A stretch of 64,000 nt of DNA from an uncultured Clostridia bacterium (GTDB lineage: Bacteria; Bacillota; Clostridia; TANB77; CAG-508), in contig CANQCG010000003.1 of the NCBI GenBank assembly GCA_947589645.1, positions 3,891 through 67,890 of the forward strand. The letters run 5' to 3'. Of this stretch, positions 1-59,790 are shown piece by piece. Numbering within the stretch: position 1 is the stretch's first letter; the number at the start of each line of letters is the position of its first letter. The position numbers and the translations under genes are program-made. The notes beneath the pieces were generated by a model. The model made no database searches, was not told the DNA's origin, and worked only from the letters and a program-made list of their open reading frames with translations.

Positions 1-1451
1 ATGTTATTTTCTACCCAGTTGCATCCTGCAGTTGTTCCTGGAGTATCATTTGAGCCTCCAACTTGGTCATAGCCCATAAATACTATATAGTCTGCTGAAT
101 TTGCAATTACTGTTCTATCAAAACATAAAGACCAATTTGGTGAGCCATCTGGCGCAGTTACATCTACAGATAATACCTTGCCTATTCTTTGCATGTTTGG
201 CTGTAATTCTATAATAAATCTAGAGAATAAATCTTTGTCTCTTTCATACATATATTCAAAATCTATATTTATTCCGTCTAAATCATATTGCTCACAAGCA
301 TTTACGATATTATTTATCAATTCTTTTCTTAATTTATAACTATTCATTATTTGTGATGTTACTTTTAAAATATTTGATGATCCGCCAATGCTTGAAGCTT
401 CGGTATTTGATATCATAGCCCATACTTTATAGTTGTTTGTATGTGCCCACTTAATGTAATCTACACCTTCTTGTCCTACTTTATCTTGAAATTTTGCTTT
501 TCCATCTATATAGAAAAATGTTGGTGAAACTACATTTACTCCTTCTATTTCTTCTCCCTCTCTATCTGGAGCAGTTCTATATTCTGAGTAATAGTCCCAG
601 AACATATTTATTTTTCCTTCAACTTGCTTTTTTATAACTTCTTCCTCTCTAACTATTACTTCATTTTGTAATATATTTGTTTTTACAAATCCTATTTTTC
701 CATTTTGAGTTCTTACTTTTGTCCAACCATCATCTCTTTTTGTTACTATAATTACGCTATCTCCACTTTCTATTTTATCAACTGTTCTAGATAATATCCT
801 TGCATATCGTTTAACTGATATATCTTTAGAAACTTCTGCTTTTACTTGCTCTTTTTTTAAAGAATCCATTGTTACAATATCTGTCTCTTTAATATATTCT
901 AATTCTATATTATAAACATTTGTCATTTCTGATATAGGTAAATAGATTACATCATTTCTTTCTATCGCTACAGCTTTTACTCTTTTAGTCGTGTCATTTA
1001 TACTAATAGAGTTCCCTGTAAAGCCTACTTCTGCAATATTATCATCATAAGTTGTTATTATCATTTGTTCATCTTTTTCTTCGTAAATATATTTATCAAA
1101 GAAATTTTTAATGTCGCTCATAGACATAAATATTACATCATTTTCTATTATTAGATCTTTCTTTACTCTTGCAGTTACATTATTGTTGTTTATGATTAAA
1201 TTTGTTCTGTCTGTTATGTCATCATTTTTATAATATTTTGAAGTATCTAAAACGAATACTGCTATTAATAGCAATATTGCTACTATAATAATTCTTATAA
1301 CCCAGGTAAATGCTGAATTTTTTTTCTTCTTTGAGTCCTTTTTTTCCTCTTTTTCTAAACCTACTGTTGACCAAGAACTTTCTTTTTTCTCAGTTTGTTC
1401 TGTTTTTAATTCTTCTTGTAATTCTTGTTTTTCATTATCTTTTGCTTCCAT
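1..1451 (-). CDS. Glycoside hydrolase family 18 protein (YaaH/YdhD-like) with N-terminal membrane anchor and SH3b domain; the 3' end of the gene lies beyond the window start
   Basis: Absent from the ORF track because it is open to the window edge. Own translation from ATG 1451: MEAKDNEKQELQ.... TM segment WVIRIIIVAILLLIAVFVL; SH3b-like GDSVIIVTKRDDGWTKVRTQNGKIGFV; GH18 catalytic motif DGINIDFE; MGYDQ. SD GGGGA 5 nt upstream. Confidence 0.8.
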   Translation of the reverse strand, partial: MEAKDNEKQELQEELKTEQTEKKESSWSTVGLEKEEKKDSKKKKNSAFTWVIRIIIVAILLLIAVFVLDTSKYYKNDDITDRTNLIINNNNVTARVKKDLIIENDVIFMSMSDIKNFFDKYIYEEKDEQMIITTYDDNIAEVGFTGNSISINDTTKRVKAVAIERNDVIYLPISEMTNVYNIELEYIKETDIVTMDSLKKEQVKAEVSKDISVKRYARILSRTVDKIESGDSVIIVTKRDDGWTKVRTQNGKIGFVKTNILQNEVIVREEEVIKKQVEGKINMFWDYYSEYRTAPDREGEEIEGVNVVSPTFFYIDGKAKFQDKVGQEGVDYIKWAHTNNYKVWAMISNTEASSIGGSSNILKVTSQIMNSYKLRKELINNIVNACEQYDLDGINIDFEYMYERDKDLFSRFIIELQPNMQRIGKVLSVDVTAPDGSPNWSLCFDRTVIANSADYIVFMGYDQVGGSNDTPGTTAGCNWVENN

Positions 1452-1461
1452 ATTTTTCCCC

Positions 1462-1493
1462 TATGCTAGTTATAAACTAACATATCTCCTTTC
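1462..1493 (-). promoter_or_regulatory. SD+hairpin leader module, copy 1 (def/GH18 junction)
   Basis: Minus-strand RNA: GAAAGGAGA-UAUGUUAG-UUUAUAA-CUAGCAUA-GGGGAAAAAU-AUG(1451). 8-bp stem with one U.G pair. Confidence 0.6.
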
Positions 1494-1514
1494 AATTTTA
1501 GTTTAAATTTTGCT

Positions 1515-2003
1515 CTATTGCTTATTATTTTTATTAGGGTCTACATACTCTAAAGTTCCAGGCACTATCTTATCTATAAATACTTCCCCATTTAAATGAT
1601 CTATTTCGTGACTAATTGCTTGTGCTAGAAGTTCTTTTGCTTTTATTTTATGAGTTTTTCCTTCTCTATTTAGTGCTTCTATTGTTATTTCGGCTGGTCT
1701 TATTACCTTAGCAAACTTATTTGGAAAACTTAAGCAACCCTCTTCAACCTCTTGCTCTCCTTTTTGCTTTAATATTTTTGGGTTTATCAAAATATATGGC
1801 CCGCTTCCATCTTCTATATCTATTACAATTACTTGTTTTAACACACCAACTTGTACAGCTGCTAAGCCAACTCCATTTGCTTTATACATGGTATCTAGCA
1901 TGTCGTCAATCAATTCTTGTATTTTATCATTTATTTCTTCAACCGGCCTTGATTTTTTCTTTAGAATTTCGTCTCCTTCTTCTCTTATTTTTCTAATTGC
2001 CAT
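1515..2003 (-). CDS. def: Peptide deformylase
   Basis: 162 aa. Three PDF motifs: GVGLAAVQ, EGCLSFP, HEIDHLNG. Confidence 0.95.
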   Translation of the reverse strand: MAIRKIREEGDEILKKKSRPVEEINDKIQELIDDMLDTMYKANGVGLAAVQVGVLKQVIVIDIEDGSGPYILINPKILKQKGEQEVEEGCLSFPNKFAKVIRPAEITIEALNREGKTHKIKAKELLAQAISHEIDHLNGEVFIDKIVPGTLEYVDPNKNNKQ

Positions 2004-2012
2004 ACTTTTTCT

Positions 2013-2043
2013 ATGTTAGAAGATGTCTAACATGTCTCCTTTC
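2013..2043 (-). promoter_or_regulatory. SD+hairpin leader module, copy 2 (priA/def junction)
   Basis: AGAAAGGAG-AC-AUGUUAGA-CAUCU-UCUAACAU-AGAAAAAGU-AUG(2003). Perfect 8-bp stem. Confidence 0.6.
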
Positions 2044-2129
2044 TATATAAAATCTACTAAAATTTTATATTTTTAATGTTTTAAAATAAAATAATTACTT
2101 ATGTAAGCTACCTATGATAGATTTTAAAA

Positions 2130-4415
2130 TTATACCATATTGTTTGGGTTAACATCTGCCCATACTTTCGTATTTTTAATGCTTTTGCTATATACATTTG
2201 CTAAACATTCATTTATGTCTTCATAAGCCTTTGCTGTCATTTTTCCCTTTATTATCATTCTCCATCTAATTTTGTTTTGTATTTTATCAATTGGAGAAGG
2301 TACTGGTCTAAATATGCTAAATTTCTGCTTGTCCATTTTATTTTCAAGATATTTATATACATATTCGCTTGTCGAAATTAATTCTTTTTGATTTGTTCCT
2401 GTAAAACTAATTACAATTATATCGCAAAAAGGTGGATATTTCAACTGCTTTCTTAAGGCTATTTCAATATTATAGAAGTCTTCGTAATTCTGCTTTTGAG
2501 CTAAATCTATACTAAAATTGTCTGGATTATAAGTTTGAATTATTACTTTTCCTTTTATTCTTTCTCTTCCTGCTCTTCCTGCTACTTGTGTTAATATTTG
2601 AAACGTTCTTTCATTTGCTCTATAATCATCTATATTTAAACTGGTATCTGCTGCAATTACTCCTACTAATGTAACATTTGGAAAATGATGTCCTTTTACT
2701 ATCATTTGAGTTCCAATTAAAATGTCTATGTTGTCATTTTTAAATTTTTCTAATATTTCTTCATGTGAATTCTTTTTAGTTACAGTATCAACATCCATCC
2801 TAATTGTTGTTGCATTTGGAAAAATTTTATTAACTTCCTCTTCAATTTTTTGAGTACCAGTTCCAAAATATCTTATTTTATTACTATTACAATTTGGGCA
2901 AGTGGTTACCACTTTTTGTTCGAAACCACAATAGTGACATTTTAATTTATTTTCAAATCTGTGGTACGTCATACTTATATTGCAGTTTTTACATTTTACA
3001 GTATACCCACATTCTCTACACATTATAAAGGTTGAAAAACCTCTTCTGTTTAAAAATAGAATTGTCTGCTTTTTATCTTGTAAGTTTTTTTGCATAGCTT
3101 CATATAAAGAAGTACTTAATACTCCTCTATTACCTTGTGCTAATTCTTGCTTTAGGTCTACTATTTCTACTTCTGGCAAACTAGCATTGTTTGCCCTTTT
3201 GGTTAGAGTAAGTAATGTTATGTTTTTATTTATTGCATTATTCTTATTATTTGAGTCTGATGATATTGTTTTTTCTGTTTGCTTGCCGGCTGTTGCTTTA
3301 TAAAATGTTGATATATCTGGTGTTGCACTTCCTAAAACTACTGGAAAGTCTCCATGCTTTCCTAGTATGCTTGCTATTTCTTTTGCATTATATCTTGGGC
3401 TAGATTCTGATTTATATGAACTATCATGTTCTTCATCTATTATTATGATTCCTATATTTTCAGTTGGTGCAAATATTGCAGACCTTGCTCCTATTACAAT
3501 ATTTGCTTTTCCTTCTTTTATTTTATTCCATTCATCATATCTTTCGCCTATTGATAACTTGCTATGTAATACAGCTATTTTTTCTTTTCCGAACCTTGAT
3601 ATGAATCTATTTATTGTTTGTGGAGTTAGAGAAATCTCTGGCACTAGCATTATTGCAGTTTTCTCTTTTTCTAATACCTTTTCTATTAACTGTAAGTATA
3701 CTTCTGTTTTTCCAGAACCAGTTACTCCATAAAGTAAAAATTCTTCATATCGATTTTCTTGTATTGAAGCATTTATTTTATCAAAGGCTATTTTTTGTTC
3801 TTCTGTTAATTCTAATTTTTGCGTTTTTTCAACTTCTTTATTTTCTAAAGGATTGCGCTCTATTTTTTTCTCTACAAATTCTATATAACCGTTTTTTTCA
3901 AGTGTTTTTAAAATCGCATTAGAACAATCTGTAAACATTTCTACTTCTCCTACAGTTGCTCCTTCATTTTCTTTTAAAAATTCTAATGCTCTTTTTTGTT
4001 TTTCAGATTTTATTTTTCCAGAATGTATTTCAAATTCTATTTCTTCAATGTCTTTTGCTAAATATATTGAATTTATCGTCTTTTCTTTTACTTCATTTTT
4101 TCTTTTACTTCCTGGAGCTGACATTAACTTAATACATTCAGAAACATTACAGAAGTATTTTTTTGACATCCATTTTGCTAACCTAATTTGTTTTTCTGTA
4201 AGATTATGCTTTACTTTTGCTATGTCTTTTACTTCAAAATTGGTGCTTTGCTTTATTCCTACAACATATGCTTCTTCTAGTGTTTTAGCATTTCCAAATG
4301 GCACTAATACTGTACTTCCAATAATAACTATGTCTTCTATTTCTTTTGGAATGTTGTAGTCAAAAGTTCTATTTAGTTTTTTTGATGATCTATCTATTAT
4401 TACTTCTGCTATCAT
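2130..4415 (-). CDS. priA: Primosomal replication restart helicase PriA
   Basis: 761 aa. Walker A GVTGSGKT; DEEH box IIIDEEHD; Cys-rich Zn-binding insert CRECGYTVKCKNC...CHYCG...CPNC. Confidence 0.95.
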   Translation of the reverse strand: MIAEVIIDRSSKKLNRTFDYNIPKEIEDIVIIGSTVLVPFGNAKTLEEAYVVGIKQSTNFEVKDIAKVKHNLTEKQIRLAKWMSKKYFCNVSECIKLMSAPGSKRKNEVKEKTINSIYLAKDIEEIEFEIHSGKIKSEKQKRALEFLKENEGATVGEVEMFTDCSNAILKTLEKNGYIEFVEKKIERNPLENKEVEKTQKLELTEEQKIAFDKINASIQENRYEEFLLYGVTGSGKTEVYLQLIEKVLEKEKTAIMLVPEISLTPQTINRFISRFGKEKIAVLHSKLSIGERYDEWNKIKEGKANIVIGARSAIFAPTENIGIIIIDEEHDSSYKSESSPRYNAKEIASILGKHGDFPVVLGSATPDISTFYKATAGKQTEKTISSDSNNKNNAINKNITLLTLTKRANNASLPEVEIVDLKQELAQGNRGVLSTSLYEAMQKNLQDKKQTILFLNRRGFSTFIMCRECGYTVKCKNCNISMTYHRFENKLKCHYCGFEQKVVTTCPNCNSNKIRYFGTGTQKIEEEVNKIFPNATTIRMDVDTVTKKNSHEEILEKFKNDNIDILIGTQMIVKGHHFPNVTLVGVIAADTSLNIDDYRANERTFQILTQVAGRAGRERIKGKVIIQTYNPDNFSIDLAQKQNYEDFYNIEIALRKQLKYPPFCDIIVISFTGTNQKELISTSEYVYKYLENKMDKQKFSIFRPVPSPIDKIQNKIRWRMIIKGKMTAKAYEDINECLANVYSKSIKNTKVWADVNPNNMV

Positions 4416-8217: not shown

Positions 8218-8314
8218 TTTTATATATCTTTTTCAAAATGAGGGCTTTTCTACAAGCTAGCATTATAATTTTACATAAAAATAAAATGCTAGCTTGTAGA
8301 AAAGGGGTGTTTTT
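8218..8314 (+). repeat. 97-bp dispersed palindromic repeat, copy A
   Basis: Matches the reverse complement of 41152-41248 with 3 mismatches (hand alignment). Perfect 20-bp arms 8245-8264 / 8285-8304 (CTTTTCTACAAGCTAGCATT / AATGCTAGCTTGTAGAAAAG); 20-nt AT loop. Confidence 0.85.
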
Positions 8315-8385
8315 AGAAAAGAATAATATTTTTCTTGTCATTTTAAATTAAATATAGTTCTTGCAATCGGTAAAAATGTTTTTTT

Positions 8386-20195: not shown

Positions 20196-21839
20196 CTAAC
20201 CTTCAACTACATTTAAAATATTTTTTTCTAATTCCTTCATTTTCTCGTTAATTCTAAACATGTCTGCTTCTTTTAAATTATGATTTTCTACATCCTGCTT
20301 TACAAAGTCTTCCATTTCTACTAGTTCTTGTTTTATTTGATTTAATCTATATAATATTTGCTGTCTTAAATCAGTTGGTTTTTCATAAGAAATTTGATTT
20401 ACAAGCTCTGTTTCGCCATCTAAATCATATGTTTCTCCCCAATCTGGTATTGTAACAGCTATTCCAGTTTCCTCTACAATCTTTTCTTTTAATACTTCTT
20501 GAGCTTCTTCCTCGCCATGTACTAAAAATATGTGTTTTGGCTTTTCAATAAATGAATATATAAAGTTCATAAGCCATTCTTGGTCAGCATGGCCTGAATA
20601 ACCTTCTATATATTCAATTCTAGCATTTACACTGATTTCTTCTCCAAATATTTTTACTGTTTTAGCTCCATTTACTATACTATAACCCAATGTGCCTGGT
20701 GCTTGGTACCCAACAAATAATATTGTACTTTTTGGATCCCACAAATGATGTTTTAAATGATGTTTTATTCTTCCTACTTCGCACATGCCACTTGCAGATA
20801 TTATTATAGATGGCTCTTTACTTTGGTTTAATGCTTTTGACTCATCTGCTGTTTGTGCAAATTTTAGACCCGGAAATTCTAATGGATTATCTCCCATTGA
20901 TATTCTTGCTTTTGTTTCATCATCAAATAATTCCATATTATCGTTGAATATTTGTGTTGCTGATATTGCAAGTGGACTATCTACATATACTGGTGCCTTC
21001 ATTAATGTTTGATATTCTTTTCGAAATTTTTCGTCTGTTCTTTTTTCTTTTAAATTATTTATTTCATATAGTATTTCTTGAGTTCTGCCTACAGCAAATG
21101 ATGGTATTACTACTGTTCCACCATTATCTAAAGTTTCTGATACAATATCTAGGAAGAGTTCTGCTTTTTCTAAGTTTTTGTTATGCAATCTACTTCCATA
21201 GGTTGACTCCATTACTAGAATATCTGCATTATCAATCATGGTTGGCTCTCCAAGTAATGGTATATCATTATTTCCTAGGTCTCCTGTAAATACCGCTTTT
21301 GTTTCTTTTCCATTTTCATTGGCCCAAATTTCTATAATGCTAGAGCCTAACATGTGTCCAGCATCATTAAATCTAACATGTATATCTTGATCTATTTCTA
21401 TTAATTCGTCATATTGTACTGGATGAAATATTTCTAAACAATCTATAGCATCTTGTGCTGTATATAATGGTTCTAATGGTTCTTCACCTTTTCTTTGTCT
21501 TTTCTTGTTCTTCCATACAGATTCCATCTCTTGTATATGTCCACTATCTTGCAACATTATTGAGCATAAGTCACATGTTGCTTTATGAGCAAATATTGGT
21601 CCCTTGAAACCATCTTTATACAATTTTGGAATTCTTCCTGAGTGATCTATATGTGCATGTGTAAGTAGCATAAAATCTAATTCAGCAGGGTTATATGCAA
21701 AAGGCTTATAATTTTGTGCCTCGGTATCGCCTCTTCCTTGGAACATACCACAATCTACTAAAAATTTTTTGCCTGCTGCTTCCACCAAAAAATTTGATCC
21801 TGTAACTGTTTTTGTTGCTCCTAAAAATGTAATTTTCAT
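20196..21839 (-). CDS. MBL-fold beta-CASP family hydrolase (RNA-metabolising type) with a C-terminal coiled-coil extension
   Basis: 547 aa. HAHIDHSG motif, later D/H motifs (GDLGN, SGHAD). The C-terminal region of about 90 aa is helical. Confidence 0.8.
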   Translation of the reverse strand: MKITFLGATKTVTGSNFLVEAAGKKFLVDCGMFQGRGDTEAQNYKPFAYNPAELDFMLLTHAHIDHSGRIPKLYKDGFKGPIFAHKATCDLCSIMLQDSGHIQEMESVWKNKKRQRKGEEPLEPLYTAQDAIDCLEIFHPVQYDELIEIDQDIHVRFNDAGHMLGSSIIEIWANENGKETKAVFTGDLGNNDIPLLGEPTMIDNADILVMESTYGSRLHNKNLEKAELFLDIVSETLDNGGTVVIPSFAVGRTQEILYEINNLKEKRTDEKFRKEYQTLMKAPVYVDSPLAISATQIFNDNMELFDDETKARISMGDNPLEFPGLKFAQTADESKALNQSKEPSIIISASGMCEVGRIKHHLKHHLWDPKSTILFVGYQAPGTLGYSIVNGAKTVKIFGEEISVNARIEYIEGYSGHADQEWLMNFIYSFIEKPKHIFLVHGEEEAQEVLKEKIVEETGIAVTIPDWGETYDLDGETELVNQISYEKPTDLRQQILYRLNQIKQELVEMEDFVKQDVENHNLKEADMFRINEKMKELEKNILNVVEG

Positions 21840-26010: not shown

Positions 26011-26514
26011 CTATTTTAATTCTTTTCTACTATTTTGTACTGTTTTTATTATATCTTCAAGTGACATTTCCATTAAATGTGATGCTTCTTCCATGCTCTT
26101 TCTTAACTTGTCTAGGGTAGTTGTTAATACTTCTTCTGTTGAGTTTAATAAGTTATCTGCGTATTCTTTTGTTCCTTCTGAAATTTCACGTGACATATCA
26201 TTTGCTGATTCTATAATTTCATTTTTTTGCTCATAAGCTTTTCTTGTAATTTCATGTTCATCAATCATTGAAATTATTCTATTTTCAGCTTCTTTTACAA
26301 TTCCATCAGCTTCTTTTTGTGCCTCAAGAAGTATTCTTTGTCTTTCTTCTTTGATCCATTTAGCTTGTTTTAATTCGTCTGGTAATTTTAGTCTTATCTC
26401 TTTTATGATATCTAAAATTTCACCCTTGTCCACTATACTTTTTTGTGAAAAAGGTACTCCTCTACTTCTTTCTAAAATATCCTCCAATGATTCTAATAAT
26501 GTAAAAATCTCCAT
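26011..26514 (-). CDS. Coiled-coil protein of unknown function
   Basis: 167 aa, heptad-rich (ATP-synthase-b / V-ATPase-G-like composition only). Preceded by leader module copy 3. Confidence 0.45.
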
Positions 26515-26521
26515 TTTACTT

Positions 26522-26552
26522 CATGTTAGTATATACTAACATGCCTCCTTTC
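26522..26552 (-). promoter_or_regulatory. SD+hairpin leader module, copy 3 (rsmD/coiled-coil gene junction)
   Basis: AGAAAGGAGG-CAUGUUAGU-AUAU-ACUAACAUG-AAGUAAA-AUG(26514). Perfect 22-nt palindrome directly abutting GGAGG. Confidence 0.65.
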
Positions 26553-26558
26553 TTGGTT

Positions 26559-27110
26559 TTAGGCATTCTTTCGTAAAAATATTATATGTGCAATACCATA
26601 TTTTCTTTTATCAGTTATCTCATATTTTAGTTCTTGCAACTCGTTTAATATTCTTTGCTCATCATTTGTTTCTAATATTATTATTGTTTCTTCATTTATA
26701 AATTCACTATTTTGCAATATTTTCAAAGCTTTTTGTATATAATCTGTTTCATATGGTGGGTCAATATAAATTATATCAATATGCTCTTTTAAAGTTTTTA
26801 AGATTTGCTCAAAATCGCTATTATAAACCTCTACTTTTTCTTCTGAATGTGTTTTTTCTTTGTTTTTGTTTATTATATTAATTGCTTCTTTAGATTTATC
26901 GCATAATATAGATTTTTTAGCACCTCTGCTTACTGCTTCTAGTCCTATTGCTCCACTTCCAGAAAATAAGTCTAAAAATACACCGCCTTCGATTTCTTGC
27001 TGTATTATATTAAATACTGATTCTTTTACTCTATCTAATGTTGGCCTTGTGACTTTTCCCTCTAGAGTGAATAATTTGGTGCCTCTAGCTGTTCCTCCTA
27101 TTATTCTCAT
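26559..27110 (-). CDS. rsmD: 16S rRNA (guanine966-N2)-methyltransferase
   Basis: 183 aa. SAM motif LDLFSGSGAIGLEA and IYIDPPY. Confidence 0.85.
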   Translation of the reverse strand: MRIIGGTARGTKLFTLEGKVTRPTLDRVKESVFNIIQQEIEGGVFLDLFSGSGAIGLEAVSRGAKKSILCDKSKEAINIINKNKEKTHSEEKVEVYNSDFEQILKTLKEHIDIIYIDPPYETDYIQKALKILQNSEFINEETIIILETNDEQRILNELQELKYEITDKRKYGIAHIIFLRKNA

Positions 27111-41122: not shown

Positions 41123-41151
41123 TTTTCATCCTCCTAATATATTTCTTTTTA

Positions 41152-41248
41152 AAAAACACCCCTTTTCTACAAGCTAGCATTTTATTTTTATGTAAATTTA
41201 TAATGCTAGCTTGTAGAAAAGCCCCTATTTTGAAAAAGATATATAAAA
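41152..41248 (-). repeat. 97-bp dispersed palindromic repeat, copy B (between fabF and accB)
   Basis: Reverse complement is near-identical to 8218-8314. In this copy the hairpin followed by GGGGTGTTTTTT reads in the sense direction of the fab genes. Confidence 0.85.
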
Positions 41249-44314: not shown

Positions 44315-44893
44315 TTATACACCTATCCTTTTTATTATTTTTGGCTCTATTAAATTAACAAATTTGCTAATTACTTTTGAATTATCAATTTTTATTTTGA
44401 ATTCTTTGCTCACGGAAGTAGCTAATTCGTTTATTTCTTCATTAAAATTAGACTTATTTGTGTTAATTCCAATTCCTATTACAACATCTTTAATTTTTTC
44501 GCCAAATGACTTGGTTTCCGTAAGTATTCCTCCAATTTTTTTACCAAAATACACAATATCATTTGGCTGTTTAATTTGAAGTTCTATTTTATATAATTTT
44601 TGAAATACTTCTACTATTGTTTCTGCTATTTCCCTAGTAAATCCTTCCATTTTAATTGCGTTACAGTTTGCTTCTATATAAAGCGAAAATGCTATGTTAT
44701 TTTTTTCGTCTGTATACCAAGTTTTACCATGAGTTCCTACTCCTTTTGTTTGAATGTCTGCTATAATTAGATCTCCATTTTTTATAGTTTTGTTTTTTAT
44801 TCTTCTCCAAACCTCGGCTTGCGTAGAATCTATAGCCTCAAAGTAAATTATATTTCTTGCCAAAAAATTAGTATTTAAATTTTGTAATTCCAT
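44315..44893 (-). CDS. Short biotin-protein ligase catalytic-domain protein (no HTH, no C-terminal domain)
   Basis: 192 aa. BPL motifs IDSTQ, KQPNDI, KKIGGILTE, GIGINT. The biotin loop reads KGVGTHGKTW instead of GRGRxGRxW. Confidence 0.7.
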   Translation of the reverse strand: MELQNLNTNFLARNIIYFEAIDSTQAEVWRRIKNKTIKNGDLIIADIQTKGVGTHGKTWYTDEKNNIAFSLYIEANCNAIKMEGFTREIAETIVEVFQKLYKIELQIKQPNDIVYFGKKIGGILTETKSFGEKIKDVVIGIGINTNKSNFNEEINELATSVSKEFKIKIDNSKVISKFVNLIEPKIIKRIGV

Positions 44894-44904
44894 TTATTTT
44901 GCTT

Positions 44905-44930
44905 TGCTAGATACTAGCTAGCATCTCCTC
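44905..44930 (-). promoter_or_regulatory. SD+hairpin leader module, copy 6 (acyl-CoA ligase 3' end / birA-like start)
   Basis: GAGAGGAG-A-UGCUAG-CUAGUAU-CUAGCA-AAGCAAAAUAA-AUG(44893). The SD and 5' arm are the last codons (EEMLASI*) of the upstream ORF. C-G replaces U-A at stem position 4. Confidence 0.45.
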
Positions 44931-48261: not shown

Positions 48262-50307
48262 TTAAATTTCAATACTAGTTTTAAATTTTTCTTTTACTGC
48301 TTTTTTTAATTTTTTATTTTTTGATAATTCTAATTTACTATCTTCTGATAAAATTTGTAAGGCTAATTTTTGTACCTCTTTTAATAATGGCATATCTTCA
48401 AATAAATTTGCTACTTTTAGTTCTGGAAGCCCATGCTGTGCTGTTCCAAAAAAGTCTCCCGAGCCTCTTAGCTCTAAGTCTTTTTCAGATATTATAAACC
48501 CATCATTTGTATTGCACATTACTTTCATTCTTTCACGAATGTTTTCACTATTTCCTTCATATTTTAATATACAATATGATTTGTATTCTCCTCTTCCTAC
48601 TCTTCCTCTTAACTGGTGTAACTGTGCTAGTCCAAATCTTTCTGCGTTTTCGACAATCATAAGGCTTGCATTTGGCACATTTATTCCAACTTCTATTACT
48701 GTTGTAGAAATTAAAATATCTATTTTGCCTTCTTTAAAGTCCTCCATTATTTGTTCTTTTTCTTTAGGCTTCATTTTTCCGTGTAAGTATTCTACGCGAT
48801 AATTACTAAATATTTCTGTTTTATATTTTAGGGCAAGACTTGTTACTGCTTTTAAATCGTTTTCTTCGTCTTCTTCAACTAATGGGCAAACTATGTACGC
48901 TTGTCTTCCTTCAGCTATTTGCTGTCTTACAAAATTATTTACGCGTTCCTCCATATTTTTTCTAACTGCAAATGTTTCTATTTTCTTTCTATTTGGTGGA
49001 AGTTCATCTATTATTGATATATCCAAATCTCCATATAAAATCAAGGCTAAAGTTCTTGGAATTGGTGTTGCTGACATTACTAGTACATCTGGATTTTGGC
49101 CCTTTTCTTTGATTTTTGTTCTTTGCCTTACTCCAAATCTGTGTTGCTCATCAGTTACTACAAATCCCAAATTTTTAAATTCAACATTTTCTTCCAAGAT
49201 AGCATGTGTTCCAATTAAAATGTCTATTTCTCCGTTTTTTAGTTTTTCTCGTATTTCTTCTTTTCTTTTTTTAGTCGTACTAGACACTAATAATTCACAG
49301 TTTATGCCTTTATTGTTTAAAATTTGTGTAAAGCTTTCCATATGCTGGCTAGCAAGTATTGCTGTAGGAGCCATTATTGCTACTTGGTAACCTGATTTTA
49401 CAGCCTTATATGAAGCTAAAATTGCTATTACTGTTTTTCCTGAGCCAACATCTCCTTGTAGTAATCTATTCATTCCTTTACTACTTTCCATGTTAAGTTC
49501 AATTTCTTCTAATACTCTTAGCTGTGCCTTTGTAAGTCTGAAAGGCAATTCGTTTATCAATTCTGAAATATTTACATTTTTATCAAATGCTATTCCTTTA
49601 TTTTCGCTTAGATAACTATTTTTTAATTCTAACAGAGCAAGTTGCATTATTAGCAATTCTTCAAATGCCAACCTTTTGCGTGCATTTTCAAAATCTTCTA
49701 ATTTGCTTGGAAAGTGAATTTTTTTGATAGTTTCATTTAAGCCCATTAGATTATATTTTTCTAGCAAATATTCTGGAAGTGTTTCTTCTAGCTCGTCTTC
49801 AACCTCTGATAGACCTAATTCTATTATTTTTCTTAATACATTTTGTGTTAAATTCTTAGTTAGTGGGTATATTGGAATTATTTTGCCTGTATTTTTTGTT
49901 TCACTTGCTTTTTCAAATATCGGCGAAGCAATTTCTACTCTGCCATATTGACTTGAAATTTTTCCATAAAACTTATACTTTTCGCCTACTCTAAATATAT
50001 TTTTTAAATAAGATTGGTTAAACCATAGTGCTGTGCATGTTCCAGTTTCATCCCTTAACTGTAATTTATACATTGACTTGTTTCTCATTCTTATTTCGAC
50101 AATTCTTGAAACCGCTACTCCTTCAATTAATGCTACTTCTCCATCTATGCATTCACATATTTTCTTTACTTTTCCCCTGTCCTCATATTCTCTTGGAAAA
50201 TATGTTATTAAGTCTTTTAATGTAAATACTCCTAATTTGTTTAATAATTCTGCACGATTTGGTCCAACTGTTTTTATGTATTGTACTTGTTTTTCTAAAT
50301 TTACCAT
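48262..50307 (-). CDS. recG: ATP-dependent DNA helicase RecG
   Basis: 681 aa. Wedge/OB N-terminus; Walker A GDVGSGKT; DEQH box VVTDEQHRFG; QLHQLRGRVGRG. Confidence 0.95.
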   Translation of the reverse strand: MVNLEKQVQYIKTVGPNRAELLNKLGVFTLKDLITYFPREYEDRGKVKKICECIDGEVALIEGVAVSRIVEIRMRNKSMYKLQLRDETGTCTALWFNQSYLKNIFRVGEKYKFYGKISSQYGRVEIASPIFEKASETKNTGKIIPIYPLTKNLTQNVLRKIIELGLSEVEDELEETLPEYLLEKYNLMGLNETIKKIHFPSKLEDFENARKRLAFEELLIMQLALLELKNSYLSENKGIAFDKNVNISELINELPFRLTKAQLRVLEEIELNMESSKGMNRLLQGDVGSGKTVIAILASYKAVKSGYQVAIMAPTAILASQHMESFTQILNNKGINCELLVSSTTKKRKEEIREKLKNGEIDILIGTHAILEENVEFKNLGFVVTDEQHRFGVRQRTKIKEKGQNPDVLVMSATPIPRTLALILYGDLDISIIDELPPNRKKIETFAVRKNMEERVNNFVRQQIAEGRQAYIVCPLVEEDEENDLKAVTSLALKYKTEIFSNYRVEYLHGKMKPKEKEQIMEDFKEGKIDILISTTVIEVGINVPNASLMIVENAERFGLAQLHQLRGRVGRGEYKSYCILKYEGNSENIRERMKVMCNTNDGFIISEKDLELRGSGDFFGTAQHGLPELKVANLFEDMPLLKEVQKLALQILSEDSKLELSKNKKLKKAVKEKFKTSIEI

Positions 50308-50314
50308 ATCTACT

Positions 50315-50350
50315 ATATGCTAGTTTTTGCTTACTAACATATCTCCTTTA
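50315..50350 (-). promoter_or_regulatory. SD+hairpin leader module, copy 4 (recG 5' UTR)
   Basis: GUAAAGGAG-AUAUGUUAGU-AAGCAAAA-ACUAGCAUAU-AGUAGAU-AUG(50307). 10-bp stem with one U.G pair. Confidence 0.65.
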
Positions 50351-50463: not shown

Positions 50464-51588
50464 CTAGTTATTACTTTGTTGTATTTTTTCTATTTCTTCC
50501 TTCGACATTTGTGTTACTTGCTCTATTGTTTCTATGTTTATGCCTAAGTTTAGCATGTTTTTTACTATCGTTCTTATTCCTTGTTTTACCCCTTGTTTTA
50601 TGCCTTGACTTATTCCTTGACTTATTCCTTGACTTATTCCTTGACTTATTCCTTGACTTATTCCTTGACTCATCCCTTGGTTTATGCCTTGTTTCATTCC
50701 TTTATTTATTCCTTTTTGCATAGCTTTTTGTGCAATTTTTAATCTCTCTTTTCTATCATTTCTTTTTATTCTTTCAATAAAAGCTTCCATATTATATTCC
50801 TCCTCTTTACTTTGTATTATTTTTTCTATTTTTTCTGAATCTTCTTTATTTAAAGTTCTGTTTAAGATATATTTTGCTATATTTTTTAGTTTATCTAATT
50901 TTTTCTCATCCTGTGTATTATTTATGATTTTTCCTAAATTTGTAACTAGTTCAGCAGTATTATTACTATTTTCTATTATCATAATATTAGCTAACATTGT
51001 GCCTAAGCTTAAAAGCTCTTCAGTCTTAAAACTGTTTGCCTGAACTAAATTATATTTTACATTTAGTCTTCCCTCCTCATAACCTTCAACTGTTTCTTGA
51101 TTTTGAGAAATGTAACCATTTGAATGCCATTTTCTTTTACCTGTATAGATTATTATCGGTATAACTATGGGCATTTTCTTGTTTTCTTTAATATTTGTAG
51201 TTCTTAATATTTCGGTGTAATATTCTATTAACCTAAATGGCATATTCCTATCTATTTTTGATTGATGCTCAATTAATATAAATGCATTCTTTTGCTTTAT
51301 TTTGTAGACAACATCCGCTTCTCTATTTTGATATTTGCTGGTTATAAAGCTTGTGTTATATGCTTCTATATCATCTGTATTTATTGTATTATTTAAATTT
51401 ATAAAATCTTTTAAAAAACATACTATCTCTGCTTTATCGGCTAAAATATCTCTAAAACATTTGTCGTGTATATTATTAACATCTGCATAATATGCTTCTT
51501 CTTCCTCACCACATAATAGAATAGAAGTATTCTCAAAACATTTTACATACAATAAATAATCGCTATATGTAAGTACTTCCAATAGCAT
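50464..51588 (-). CDS. Rpn-family (YhgA-like) PD-(D/E)XK recombination-promoting nuclease / putative transposase
   Basis: 374 aa. Core ADVVYKIKQKNAFILIEHQSKID; C-terminal tetrapeptide repeat array and helical tail. The N-terminal 40 aa are poorly Rpn-like, so the true start is uncertain. Confidence 0.7.
   Translation of the reverse strand: MLLEVLTYSDYLLYVKCFENTSILLCGEEEEAYYADVNNIHDKCFRDILADKAEIVCFLKDFINLNNTINTDDIEAYNTSFITSKYQNREADVVYKIKQKNAFILIEHQSKIDRNMPFRLIEYYTEILRTTNIKENKKMPIVIPIIIYTGKRKWHSNGYISQNQETVEGYEEGRLNVKYNLVQANSFKTEELLSLGTMLANIMIIENSNNTAELVTNLGKIINNTQDEKKLDKLKNIAKYILNRTLNKEDSEKIEKIIQSKEEEYNMEAFIERIKRNDRKERLKIAQKAMQKGINKGMKQGINQGMSQGISQGISQGISQGISQGISQGIKQGVKQGIRTIVKNMLNLGINIETIEQVTQMSKEEIEKIQQSNN
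50572..50715 (-). repeat. In-frame 12-bp tandem repeat array encoding about 13 (K/Q)-G-(I/M/V)-x tetrapeptides in the Rpn gene
   Basis: Five perfect CCTTGACTTATT units at 50603-50662 flanked by degenerate units. Protein reads KGIN KGMK QGIN QGMS (QGIS)x5 QGIK QGVK QGIR. Confidence 0.9.
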
Positions 51589-55014: not shown

Positions 55015-56514
55015 CTAGTTCAATGGCTTCATCGTTGGGAAGAATAATACATCTCTTATTGATGCTGAATCTGTAAATAGCATAATCATTCTATCTATTC
55101 CGATTCCAAGTCCGCCAGTTGGAGGCATACCATATTCTAGAGCTGTAATAAAATCTTCATCCATCATATTAGCTTCTTCGTCACCTGCATCACGTTGCTT
55201 TAATTGAGCTACAAATCTTTCATATTGGTCTATTGGGTCATTTAATTCTGAATATGCATTTCCATATTCACGTCCTCCAATAAAACATTCAAATCTTTCT
55301 GTTAATCTTTTATCAGATGGCTTCTTTTTTGTAAGAGGTGATACATCTACTGGGTAGTCACACACAAATGTTGGTTGTATTAATGTCTCTTCAACAAATG
55401 TTTCAAAGAATGCATTTATTATGTATCCTCTTGTTTTTTTGCTTTCTTCTATTTCAACACCTTTTTGTTTTGCAATTGCTACCGCTTCTTCGTCAGTATC
55501 TATTTTATTAAAATCTACCCCTGTTACTTCTTTTATTGCGTCTATCATGGTTGTTCTTTTCCATTTTGTTCCTAAATCAATTTCTGTTCCTTGATAATTT
55601 ATTACTGTTTTTCCTAAAACTCTTTCTGCAACTGTTCTAAATATTTCTTCTGTTATGTCCATCATATCATGATAATCTTGATATGCAGCATATAGCTCTA
55701 TTGCAGTAAATTCTGGGTTATGCCTTATATCAATTCCTTCGTTTCTAAAGTTCTTACCAATCTCATAAACCTTATCAAAACCACCTACTATTAGTCTTTT
55801 TAAGTATAGTTCTGTTGCTATTCTTAAATACATGTCCATATCTAGTGTATTGTGATGTGTTATAAATGGCTTTGCTGCTGCTCCTCCTGCTATGGTATTT
55901 AATGTTGGTGTTTCTACCTCTAGGTATCCTTTGCTGTCTAATATGTTTCTTATTTCACTTATTATTTTACTTCTTAATATAAAAGTGTCTTTTACTTCTG
56001 GATTTACTATTAAGTCTAAATATCTTTGCCTGTATCTTAAATCGACATCTTTTAAGCCATGGAATTTTTCTGGTAAAGGTCTTAATGATTTTGAAAGTAA
56101 AGTTACCTCTTTTGCATGTACAGAAATTTCTTCTGTTCTTGTTTTAAATACAAAACCTTTTATTCCTATAATGTCACCAATATCAAATGTTTTAAAAGCT
56201 TTGTAAGATTCCTCTCCTAAGTCGTTTATGCTTACATAGCTTTGTATTTTTTCATCTGAGTCTAGTATTGTGCAAAATGATGCCTTTCCCATTATTCTTT
56301 TTGCTATTATTCTTCCTGCAACAGCTACGTCTTTTTGCTCAAATTTTTCATAATTTGATTTTATTTCCCCTGCTGAATTTGTTCTATCAAATTTTGTTAT
56401 TTCAAATGGATCTTTTCCTGAAGATTGTAATTCTTCTAATTTTTCTCTTCTAATTTTCATTAATTGATTTAAGTCTAATTCTTGTTCTTGATTTTCCTCA
56501 TTATTTTCTTGCAT
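55015..56514 (-). CDS. lysS: Lysine-tRNA ligase (class II)
   Basis: 499 aa. OB N-terminal domain; [15 protein letters not shown]; [12 protein letters not shown]. Confidence 0.95.
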
Positions 56515-56586
56515 TTTACATTTCTCCCTTATTGATAATTTTAAATATCTTGTTTGATATTTTGAACAATAGTCTTATATAATTAC

Positions 56587-59394: not shown

Positions 59395-59748
59395 CTAATC
59401 TTTAATTATATTTTTTAAAATATTATCTATCTTTGCACCATATTCTAAAGAATCATCTACTACAAATGATAATTCTGGTGTATATCTTAAATTTATTCTT
59501 TTAGCTAATTCTGCTCTTATATATCCTGCAGACTTTTTTAAACCTTCTAAAGTTTCTTCTACACTTTTGGCATTTAAGATACTTACCCACACTTTAGCAT
59601 ATCTTAAGTCTGGTGTAACTTTTACCCTAGTCACACTTACCATTCCTGTTACTTTAGGCTCTTTTAATTCATAACTTATGATATTGCTTATTTCTTTTTT
59701 GAATTCTTCATCAATTCTTCCTAGTCTATTTTCGTTTTTATTTGGCAT
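59395..59748 (-). CDS. rbfA: Ribosome-binding factor A
   Basis: 117 aa. Position after infB. VSVTRVKVTPDLRYAKVWVS. Confidence 0.9.
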   Translation of the reverse strand: MPNKNENRLGRIDEEFKKEISNIISYELKEPKVTGMVSVTRVKVTPDLRYAKVWVSILNAKSVEETLEGLKKSAGYIRAELAKRINLRYTPELSFVVDDSLEYGAKIDNILKNIIKD

Positions 59749-59756
59749 ACTTGTTC

Positions 59757-59790
59757 ATGTTAGCTTTATAAACTAACACTTCCTCCCTTC
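59757..59790 (-). promoter_or_regulatory. SD+hairpin leader module, copy 5 (infB/rbfA junction)
   Basis: GAAGGGAGG-AA-GUGUUAG-UUUAUAAAG-CUAACAU-GAACAAGU-AUG(59748). 7-bp stem with a G.U closing pair. Confidence 0.55.

Follow-up and report, generated by a model that had tools for sequence, protein, structure and literature searches.

A recurrent hairpin between the Shine-Dalgarno sequence and the start codon as a putative lineage-restricted family of split ribosome-binding sites in uncultured gut Clostridia

Split translation-initiation regions reportedly occur at genes 38 and 25 of phage T4, as described by Nivinskas et al. in 1999 and by Malys and Nivinskas in 2009. To our knowledge, a hairpin-bridged split ribosome-binding site (RBS) has previously been described only for these two phage genes. 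The hairpin of gene 38 reduces the spacing between the Shine-Dalgarno (SD) sequence and the start codon from 22 to 5 nt, and that of gene 25 reduces it from 27 to 11 nt (PMC3014915). The present analysis concerns a 64,000-nt stretch of DNA from an uncultured Clostridia bacterium (contig CANQCG010000003.1, positions 3,891 to 67,890), here called the window, and a hairpin module that precedes six of its genes. The module comprises an SD, 0-2 nt, a 7-bp hairpin with the arms AUGUUAG and CUAACAU and a free loop of 4-10 nt, a spacer of 8-12 nt, and the only plausible start codon. It probably represents a lineage-restricted family of split RBSs, made by a stereotyped palindromic repeat in the SD-to-start spacer.

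In the proposed mechanism, the 30S subunit would bind an unusually strong, unpaired SD. A hairpin of 7-8 bp that lies 1-2 nt downstream would fold and be looped out, and the start codon, 29-38 nt away in the linear sequence, would come to an effective distance of 11-13 unpaired nt and reach the P site. At the DNA level, the hairpin would be a dispersed repeat. After insertion, its stem would either be kept paired for translation or the whole hairpin would be lost, and such a pairing requirement would leave conserved and covarying arms, a drifting loop, and clean empty sites instead of decayed forms. A first reading made from the letters of the window (the sequence-only reading) had offered two alternatives, a family of structured initiation or stability elements and a small dispersed repeat. 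The best-supported reading merges the two, as a dispersed repeat and structured initiation site that is tolerated or used as a T4-style split RBS.

The pattern GGAG-N0-3-RTGYTAG-N3-12-CTARCA has six matches in the window, all on the coding strand, against an expectation of 0.00 from 100 dinucleotide-preserving shuffles of the window, none of which gave any match. A covariance model (R1) that takes the 7-bp stem as its structure was built on 88 members of the family and was run with the filters off. It recovers exactly the six copies in the window at 24.6-43.6 bits, and the next match lies at about 19 bits. A covariance model and a shuffled control had been proposed as checks in the sequence-only reading, and both uphold the observation of six copies. 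No other type of SD-hairpin-start arrangement recurs in the window. The earlier remark that the element is not recognisable as a named RNA family also stands. At the gathering threshold, tRNA-Gln is the sole Rfam match in the window, with nothing at the element, and a permissive Rfam search of positions 1400-2100 gave only two chance-level matches, elsewhere in def. Full-text literature searches found no description of the hairpin motif.

Selection acts on a helix of the mRNA strand. In the 88-sequence alignment, 99.4% of the cells are paired, three pairs have double changes, and none of 500 shuffles was as good, which is the covariation that the sequence-only reading had suggested looking for. 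Full double substitutions occur at four of the seven stem positions in total. About 18 copies were found by other means than the fixed-arm search pattern, and these non-ascertained copies are the least biased. Three of them are compensated, namely AAGUUAG/CUAACUU in the trkA copy of locus L196, AUAUUAG/CUAAUAU in L043, and UUGCUAG/CUAGCAA in L044. The rsmE copy of L200 and the copy of L034 have an uncompensated AGGUUAG with G.A at pair 2. Orthologous def copies differ at pair 4, with U-A in the window and C-G in L208 (ATGCTAG/CTAGCAT). The wobbles in the non-ascertained copies comprise at least seven independent G.U pairs on the mRNA strand and zero C.A, an asymmetry that indicates selection on the transcript and is unexpected for a DNA palindrome or cruciform. 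A helix rather than a fixed-spacing operator had been claimed at the outset, and the compensation, the G.U-only wobbles, and the loop-independent spacing all agree with it. A double-stranded DNA operator for a protein, such as a dimeric one, is rejected, as the distance between the half-sites is variable (4-10 nt) and the wobbles are strand-specific (G.U, sense strand only). We know of no complementarity between the arms and the 3' tail of 16S rRNA or the initiator tRNA.

The spacing outside the hairpin is independent of loop length. In 81 non-redundant copies, 29-38 nt of linear sequence (mean 33) separate the end of GGAG from the start codon. When only the unpaired nucleotides are counted, as the gap after GGAG plus the arm-to-start distance, 63 of these copies have a total of 11-13 nt. 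Across the family, the arm-to-start distance, measured from the 3' arm, has a sharp peak at 9-12 nt, which covers 77 of 103 copies. The loop is 4-10 nt long, and its length is uncorrelated with the arm-to-start distance in the 81 copies. The loop is therefore invisible to the spacing, as expected for a looped-out hairpin. The likeness to T4 genes 38 and 25 drawn in the sequence-only reading thus fits in its geometry, with 29-38 linear nt reduced to 11-13 unpaired nt whatever the loop. The features of the T4 type are found in the sequence of the window copies as well: a long linear SD-AUG separation, an intervening predicted hairpin, and no other SD in five of the six. The compensatory variants found in nature are consistent with a stem whose pairing would be needed for translation.

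The SDs of the element are stronger than the ordinary SDs of the window, with a mean of -13.6 versus -9.0 kcal/mol (Mann-Whitney p = 6e-4) when the anti-SD tail is assumed to be canonical; the window holds no rRNA gene. Five of the six element genes have no GGAG, GAGG, AGGA, GGGA, or GGTG at 7-16 nt before the start, and copy 1 has an extra GGGGA. Among the other window genes, 37 of 51 have an SD 7-16 nt upstream, and the remainder mostly have an SD just outside this range or a doubtful start call. The lack of a second SD in copies 2-6 is therefore as first described, while a canonical SD in "nearly every other gene" holds, within 7-16 nt, for 37 of 51. The spacing from GGAG to the start is 6-9 nt in ordinary window genes. 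In all six leaders, the predicted minimum free energy (MFE) structure is the hairpin. The SD is unpaired in five of the six, and the start codon is mostly unpaired. About 30% of the copies lie at most 20 nt from an upstream stop codon or overlap it, and the others are 21-400 nt away, so that both of the locations first named, operon junctions and longer leaders, are seen across the family.

Outside the window, one genome per species was scanned for 185,579 species with the exact pattern AGGAG-N1-2-ATGTTAG-N4-10-CTARCAT. The scan gave 113 matching stretches, a number close to a rough chance estimate of about 120 that assumes uniform base composition. Their content is non-random: about 95 lie in metagenome-assembled genomes (MAGs) of low-GC Clostridia with the same SD-hairpin-start layout, which consists of (G)AAAGGAG, 1-2 nt, the hairpin, an A, and a start codon a few nt further on. 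The hosts of these copies are rabbit, mouse, human, ruminant, and chicken guts. Five stretches are in genomes of Izemoplasmatales or "Bacillales UBA" (Bacilli), all at one permease gene, and the remaining ones have no relation to the module and include terminators of high-GC genomes. No representative MAG has more than about five exact-pattern matches. The recurrence first noted within the window is thus that of a real family, with about 95 copies of the same architecture beyond it and no Rfam match.

The downstream genes belong to 61 families without an obvious common function. They include a nuoE-like gene with 13 occurrences and infA with 10, together with recG, miaA, pth, topA, valS, ackA, ychF, divIVA, and ftsE. 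The module is also seen at def, rbfA, lysS, and rsmE. A phage origin is rejected, with two exact matches among 2.9 million viral contigs. Public gene calls start some element genes at the hairpin AUG or at an AUG at the end of the 3' arm (L208 80-598, P0014; also P0038, P0094, P0048, P0066, and P0122), and such calls give spurious N-terminal extensions, such as MLEKNSSMKRK-MAIRK in a deformylase and MKRK-MEIFTL.

Comparison of close relatives suggests that the hairpin is inserted or deleted as one discrete block of about 20-22 nt, at unrelated genes whose RBSs are otherwise ordinary. One such locus is the coiled-coil gene of copy 3, whose orthologues were anchored on their proteins and not on the motif. 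The window and L206 (92% identity) have GAAAGGAGGC-[hairpin]-GAAG(N4-6)-ATG, and L014 (79%) also has the hairpin. In L207 (89%), L202 (87%), and L203-L205 (78-71%) the hairpin is absent, and the same flanks enclose GAAAGGGGA-N7-9-ATG. This distribution requires at least two events. The alternative of a small dispersed repeat gains from such presence and absence between close relatives. The further suggestion that the repeat carries its own SD is not supported at this locus, where the GAAAGG SD is already present in the relatives that lack the hairpin.

The def module lies inside a 126-nt AT-rich priA-def spacer (2004-2130, minus strand) that is shared with L208 (Def 86%). In relatives at 82-88% Def identity, the AT-rich spacer is absent and the two genes are only 18-20 nt apart. 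In these relatives and in 38 inspected metagenomic orthologues (at most 76%), the module is missing and a canonical SD comes directly after the priA stop codon. The module would thus have come together with, or within, a larger insertion. The module of the GH18 gene is found in the window, in L196/L197, and in L198/L199, and is absent in L200/L201, which have a canonical RBS. The L198 copy has G.U at pair 7 and a loop that has evolved to lengthen the stem, and the L208 copy is shortened to ATGCT/AGCAT. In L042 (RecG 91% identical), the orthologous recG copy differs in its loop and has the 3' arm CTAACAT. The reverse case is also observed: miaA, divIVA, an RNase J-like gene (rnj), and lysS carry the module in other MAGs and have an ordinary RBS in the window.

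The copy density is uneven, with six in the 64 kb of the window and 1-2 per 20 kb in three close relatives. No copies are found in 80 kb of L202-L205 or in 430 kb of more distant def loci. We infer that the copies have a common origin by copying. In the lysS-like leader of the window (56514-56545, minus strand), the ordinary RBS AAGGGAGAAATGTAAAATG contains GGAGAAATGT, which is the start of the module, and the L087 orthologue has the full hairpin. The window leader could be a deletion remnant or a coincidence.

Several observations weigh against a looped-out, copied RBS hairpin. The effective spacing of 11-13 nt is about 4 nt above the ordinary 6-9 nt, where pure looping-out predicts an equal or shorter distance. 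In copy 3, the SD region (AGGAGGCAU) can pair with an upstream AUGCCU/AAUGCCU at the end of the rsmD-like gene (26553-26580, minus strand), and the predicted MFE structure sequesters the SD, with an unpaired probability of 0.05. This occurs only in copy 3, where the predicted pairing may couple translation to the upstream gene. The inner UUAG/CUAA is the near-invariant part of the stem, reported as never varying in the 88 aligned or the roughly 18 non-ascertained copies. Its invariance exceeds the needs of pairing and hints at sequence-specific recognition. A DNA-level copying enzyme of the REP/RAYT or IS200 type, which would insert the hairpin just 3' of GGAG on the lagging-strand template, could also account for it. 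Most of the roughly 95 external copies were found with a fixed-arm pattern, so their conservation is partly ascertainment. With respect to copying, no clear target-site duplication of 1-4 nt is found, only a marginal 2-nt match (p about 0.02-0.04). Similarity among the copies and to all fetched loci ends at the 30-45 nt from SD to start, with no shared flanks, and no transposase link is established. The loops differ between copies within one genome, which gives no sign of a recent burst. Finally, initiation through the looped-out geometry is what we infer from sequence and predicted folding.

The window has 29% G+C, and essentially all of its genes are on the minus strand. The gene content is of the low-GC Clostridia type, with priA-def, infB-rbfA, recG, mutL-miaA, sepF-divIVA, and ftsK, and among public genomes the nearest relatives are MAGs of uncultured gut bacteria under the labels "Clostridia bacterium" or "Candidatus Scatovivens". 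All six copies named in the sequence-only reading are present at the coordinates given there on the minus strand, which is their coding strand. A Pfam scan of ten window proteins identified GH18, Pep_deformylase, BPL_LplA_LipB, RecG, and RBFA domains in the element-bearing genes, in line with the identities first assigned to the GH18, def, birA-like, recG, and rbfA genes. The coiled-coil gene of copy 3 has no Pfam match.

Copy 1 is the leader of the GH18-domain gene (1449..1493), with the SD GAAAGGAG at 1493-1486 and the start ATG at 1451-1449. Its hairpin consists of the 5' arm ATGTTAG (1483-1477), the loop TTTATAA (1476-1470), and the 3' arm CTAGCAT (1469-1463), with U.G at pair 4. The 11-nt spacer holds the extra GGGGA, and the copy scores 43.6 bits. 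Copy 2, the def leader (2001..2043), has the SD GAAAGGAG at 2043-2036 and the start ATG at 2003-2001. The arms ATGTTAG (2033-2027) and CTAACAT (2019-2013) enclose the loop ACATCTT (2026-2020), the spacer is 9 nt, and the score is 37.4 bits. Copy 3 is the leader of a 167-aa DivIVA-like coiled-coil gene (26512..26552), with the SD GAAAGGAGG at 26552-26544 and the start ATG at 26514-26512. It comprises the 5' arm ATGTTAG (26542-26536), the loop TATATA (26535-26530), the 3' arm CTAACAT (26529-26523), and an 8-nt spacer, and scores 37.8 bits. Its upstream neighbour is the rsmD-like gene, whose stop codon is at 26559-26561.

Copy 4 precedes a biotin/lipoate ligase-family (birA-like) gene (44891..44930), with the SD GAGGAG at 44930-44925 and the start ATG at 44893-44891. 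The 5' arm ATGCTAG (44924-44918), the loop CTAGTAT (44917-44911), and the 3' arm CTAGCAA (44910-44904) are followed by a 10-nt spacer. Pair 4 is C-G, pair 1 is A.A, and the score is 24.6 bits. The 3' arm contains the stop codon (TAG 44909-44907) of the upstream AMP-binding-enzyme open reading frame (ORF). Copy 5, the recG leader (50305..50350), has the SD AAAGGAG at 50349-50343 and the start ATG at 50307-50305. The arms ATGTTAG (50340-50334) and CTAGCAT (50323-50317), with U.G at pair 4, enclose the loop TAAGCAAAAA (50333-50324), and the spacer is 9 nt (37.5 bits). Immediately upstream of this copy lies a YhgA/Transposase_31-family (Rpn-like) gene (50464-51588, minus strand). It has a C-terminal run of GISQ/GIKQ repeats, and no link to the hairpin repeat is established. 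Copy 6 is the rbfA leader at the infB-rbfA junction (59746..59790), with the SD GAAGGGAGG at 59790-59782 and the start ATG at 59748-59746. It contains the 5' arm GTGTTAG (59779-59773), the loop TTTATAAAG (59772-59764), the 3' arm CTAACAT (59763-59757), G.U at pair 1, and an 8-nt spacer, and scores 29.0 bits.

These details sharpen the first description of the copies. The pair tallies are as given there. At position 4, copies 2, 3, and 6 have U-A, copies 1 and 5 have U.G, and copy 4 has C-G. At position 1, the rbfA copy has G.U and the birA-like copy has A.A. Between the 3' arm and the gene AUG there are 8-11 nt, where 7-11 nt had been stated. The loops are 6-10 nt with a 7-bp stem, and the 4-9 nt once claimed presupposes additional pairs. 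The extended SD is present in copies 1, 2, 3, and 5, and is lacking in copy 4 (GAGAGGAG) and copy 6 (GAAGGGAGG).

A translational operator is an unlikely alternative. Here the hairpin would bind a lineage-specific trans-acting factor, either an RNA-binding protein or a small RNA, that controls initiation at many housekeeping genes, and the looped-out geometry would be the mode of translation when the factor is absent or present. The stem is conserved in sequence beyond pairing (inner UUAG/CUAA), its position beside the SD is ideal for blocking or aiding 30S binding, and many of the genes are growth-related, including infA, rbfA, def, pth, valS, lysS, miaA, rsmE, recG, topA, and a divIVA-like gene. 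Against this, much of the sequence invariance stems from the search pattern, and no candidate factor has been found. The loop is constrained neither in its length nor in its sequence, and little sequence can be read from a short A-form stem. The 61 gene families have no obvious common function, and gain and loss at 87-92% protein identity would be a fast turnover for membership of a regulon.

A selfish or neutral DNA repeat without an RNA-level role is quite improbable. In this case, a REP/RAYT- or IS200/IS605-style repeat would be mobilised as single-stranded DNA and targeted 3' of GGAG, and it would be seen in RBS spacers since its target lies there and insertion is tolerated there. Its origin overlaps that of the split-RBS repeat, and the two differ only in that RNA-level constraint is denied. 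The conserved stem and variable loop resemble REP-type repeats such as REP and SMAG. The hairpin is a discrete indel between close relatives with a very uneven copy density, and it always follows GGAG by 0-3 nt. Nearly all genes here point the same way, which would make the sense strand the lagging-strand template on which such transposases act. Such a repeat does not account for wobbles that are exclusively G.U, with no C.A, on the mRNA strand, for compensation among orthologues, or for the constrained spacing to the start codon. Moreover, essentially no copies lie away from SDs, a clear target-site duplication is missing, and the ten window proteins scanned include no Y1-transposase, the only transposase-like gene being YhgA/Transposase_31. 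A longer MITE-like element (miniature inverted-repeat transposable element) was also considered and rejected, as the similarity stops at the module.

An mRNA stabiliser is very improbable as the main role. The strong SD would hold a 30S subunit in the manner of a STAB-SD, and the hairpin would guard the downstream mRNA from 5'-to-3' decay or mark a processing site at operon junctions. The SD GAAAGGAGG matches the STAB-SD consensus of Bacillus thuringiensis cry3A, and the 30% of copies within 20 nt of an upstream stop codon offer a possible place of polycistronic processing. The sequence-only reading had pointed to this system. However, a STAB-SD lies far upstream of the functional RBS, from which it is separate, whereas the SD of the element is the only SD of genes without another and must serve initiation, at a usable effective distance. 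The tight 9-12 nt to the start is also unexpected for a stabiliser. The element may still have a stabilising side-effect.

A leader mini-ORF, in which the stem AUG or GUG would start a peptide of 5-13 codons that ends at the UAA/UAG of the 3' arm and allows termination-reinitiation, is effectively refuted even though the arm stop is in frame in four of the six window copies (MLVYN*, MLDIF*, MLASI*, MLVSKN*) and the variants AUG/GUG, UUA/CUA, and UAA/UAG keep start, Leu, and stop, since the loop length modulo 3 is uniform (35/35/33 across 103 copies) with no frame bias and the AUG is dispensable, as shown by variants that have AAG, AUA, or AGG in its place and compensate in the opposite arm. 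The stem AUG is 0-3 nt from the SD, usually 1-2 nt. A spacing of 0-3 nt is too short for SD-directed initiation. Under the split-RBS mechanism, this AUG would likewise be too near the SD for use and would not be required. The "AUG-containing" character that the sequence-only reading gave to the hairpin is incidental, as the non-ascertained copies have AAG, AUA, AGG, or UUG there.

The split RBS made by a dispersed hairpin remains the favoured reading. A broader version of it is tentative. In this version, the hairpin of about 20 nt would be an undescribed mobile or copy-pasted element that colonises SD-to-start spacers and is looped out by the ribosome. It might even have been recruited, via a factor that reads the fixed stem sequence, to give a clade of uncultured gut Clostridia a genome-wide handle on translation initiation at housekeeping genes.

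Two other structures of the window share sequence with the hairpin. The first is ATGTTAG-GCT-CTAGCAT, which lies at 21337-21353 (minus strand) inside the coding sequence of a 547-aa RNase J-like ORF and has no SD. Its 3-nt loop and single occurrence suggest chance. The second is an unrelated repeat with two copies of about 106 nt at 8225-8330 and 41140-41245, which are 93% identical and in opposite orientation. It forms a near-perfect 20-bp inverted repeat, CTTTTCTACAAGCTAGCAT ... ATGCTAGCTTGTAGAAAAG, of -36 kcal/mol with flanking T/A runs, and resembles a bidirectional terminator or a MITE. The heptamers CTAGCAT/ATGCTAG of its inner stem are shared with the RBS hairpin in reverse order. This repeat is absent from every fetched locus. 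A promoter or terminator role for the element itself is rejected, as a scan of 1400-2250 was empty on the gene strand.

If the split-RBS reading is true, split RBSs are routine in cellular genes across a whole lineage, including the essential infA, def, rbfA, and recG. About 100 natural variants in loop, spacing, and compensation would form a data set on the structure that the 30S subunit accommodates between the SD and the P site. How a stereotyped 20-nt palindrome comes to be copied into RBS spacers is a further question that the family poses. For annotation, gene callers misplace the starts of some element genes at the hairpin AUG, and RBS-based start prediction will misjudge element genes.

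Compared with the T4 split sites, the element is similar in that an intervening hairpin restores a usable distance, here from 29-38 to 11-13 nt, between an SD and an AUG whose linear separation is too great. The gene 25 element is also at an intercistronic junction and arose within one sub-lineage. In contrast, T4 has one hairpin at each of two genes, and the two are unrelated to each other, while here one stereotyped hairpin, of putative function, is shared by dozens of cellular genes that have no relation to one another. It occurs in many species and comes or goes as a unit.

The REP/BIME repeats of enterobacteria, the REPINs of Pseudomonas, and the SMAG repeats of Stenotrophomonas are likewise short hairpins of 20-40 nt with a conserved stem and a variable loop. 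They resemble the element in the conserved tetranucleotide just 5' of the stem (GTAG in REPs, GGAG in the element), in a copy number that varies between relatives, and in hairpins that are transcribed into mRNA. However, REPs are mostly downstream of genes or between convergent genes, often in inverted pairs, and are linked to RAYT transposases, none of which was found among the ten window proteins scanned. The element is always single, in sense orientation, and between SD and start, and its tetranucleotide is simply the SD. Like the element, the STAB-SD of B. thuringiensis cry3A has a sequence of the GAAAGGAGG type that lies well upstream of the start and is complementary over an extended length to the 3' end of 16S rRNA. 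It differs in being separate from the RBS of the gene and unused for initiation, whereas the SD of the element is the only one and has a constrained effective distance. The Rickettsia palindromic elements (RPEs) and the Correia elements of Neisseria are also palindromic repeats that are inserted in constrained sequence and tolerated or adopted by a host function. These repeats are 100-150 bp long, with RPEs in frame in coding sequence and Correia elements intergenic with a TA duplication, while the present element comprises about 20 nt and is specific to RBS spacers.

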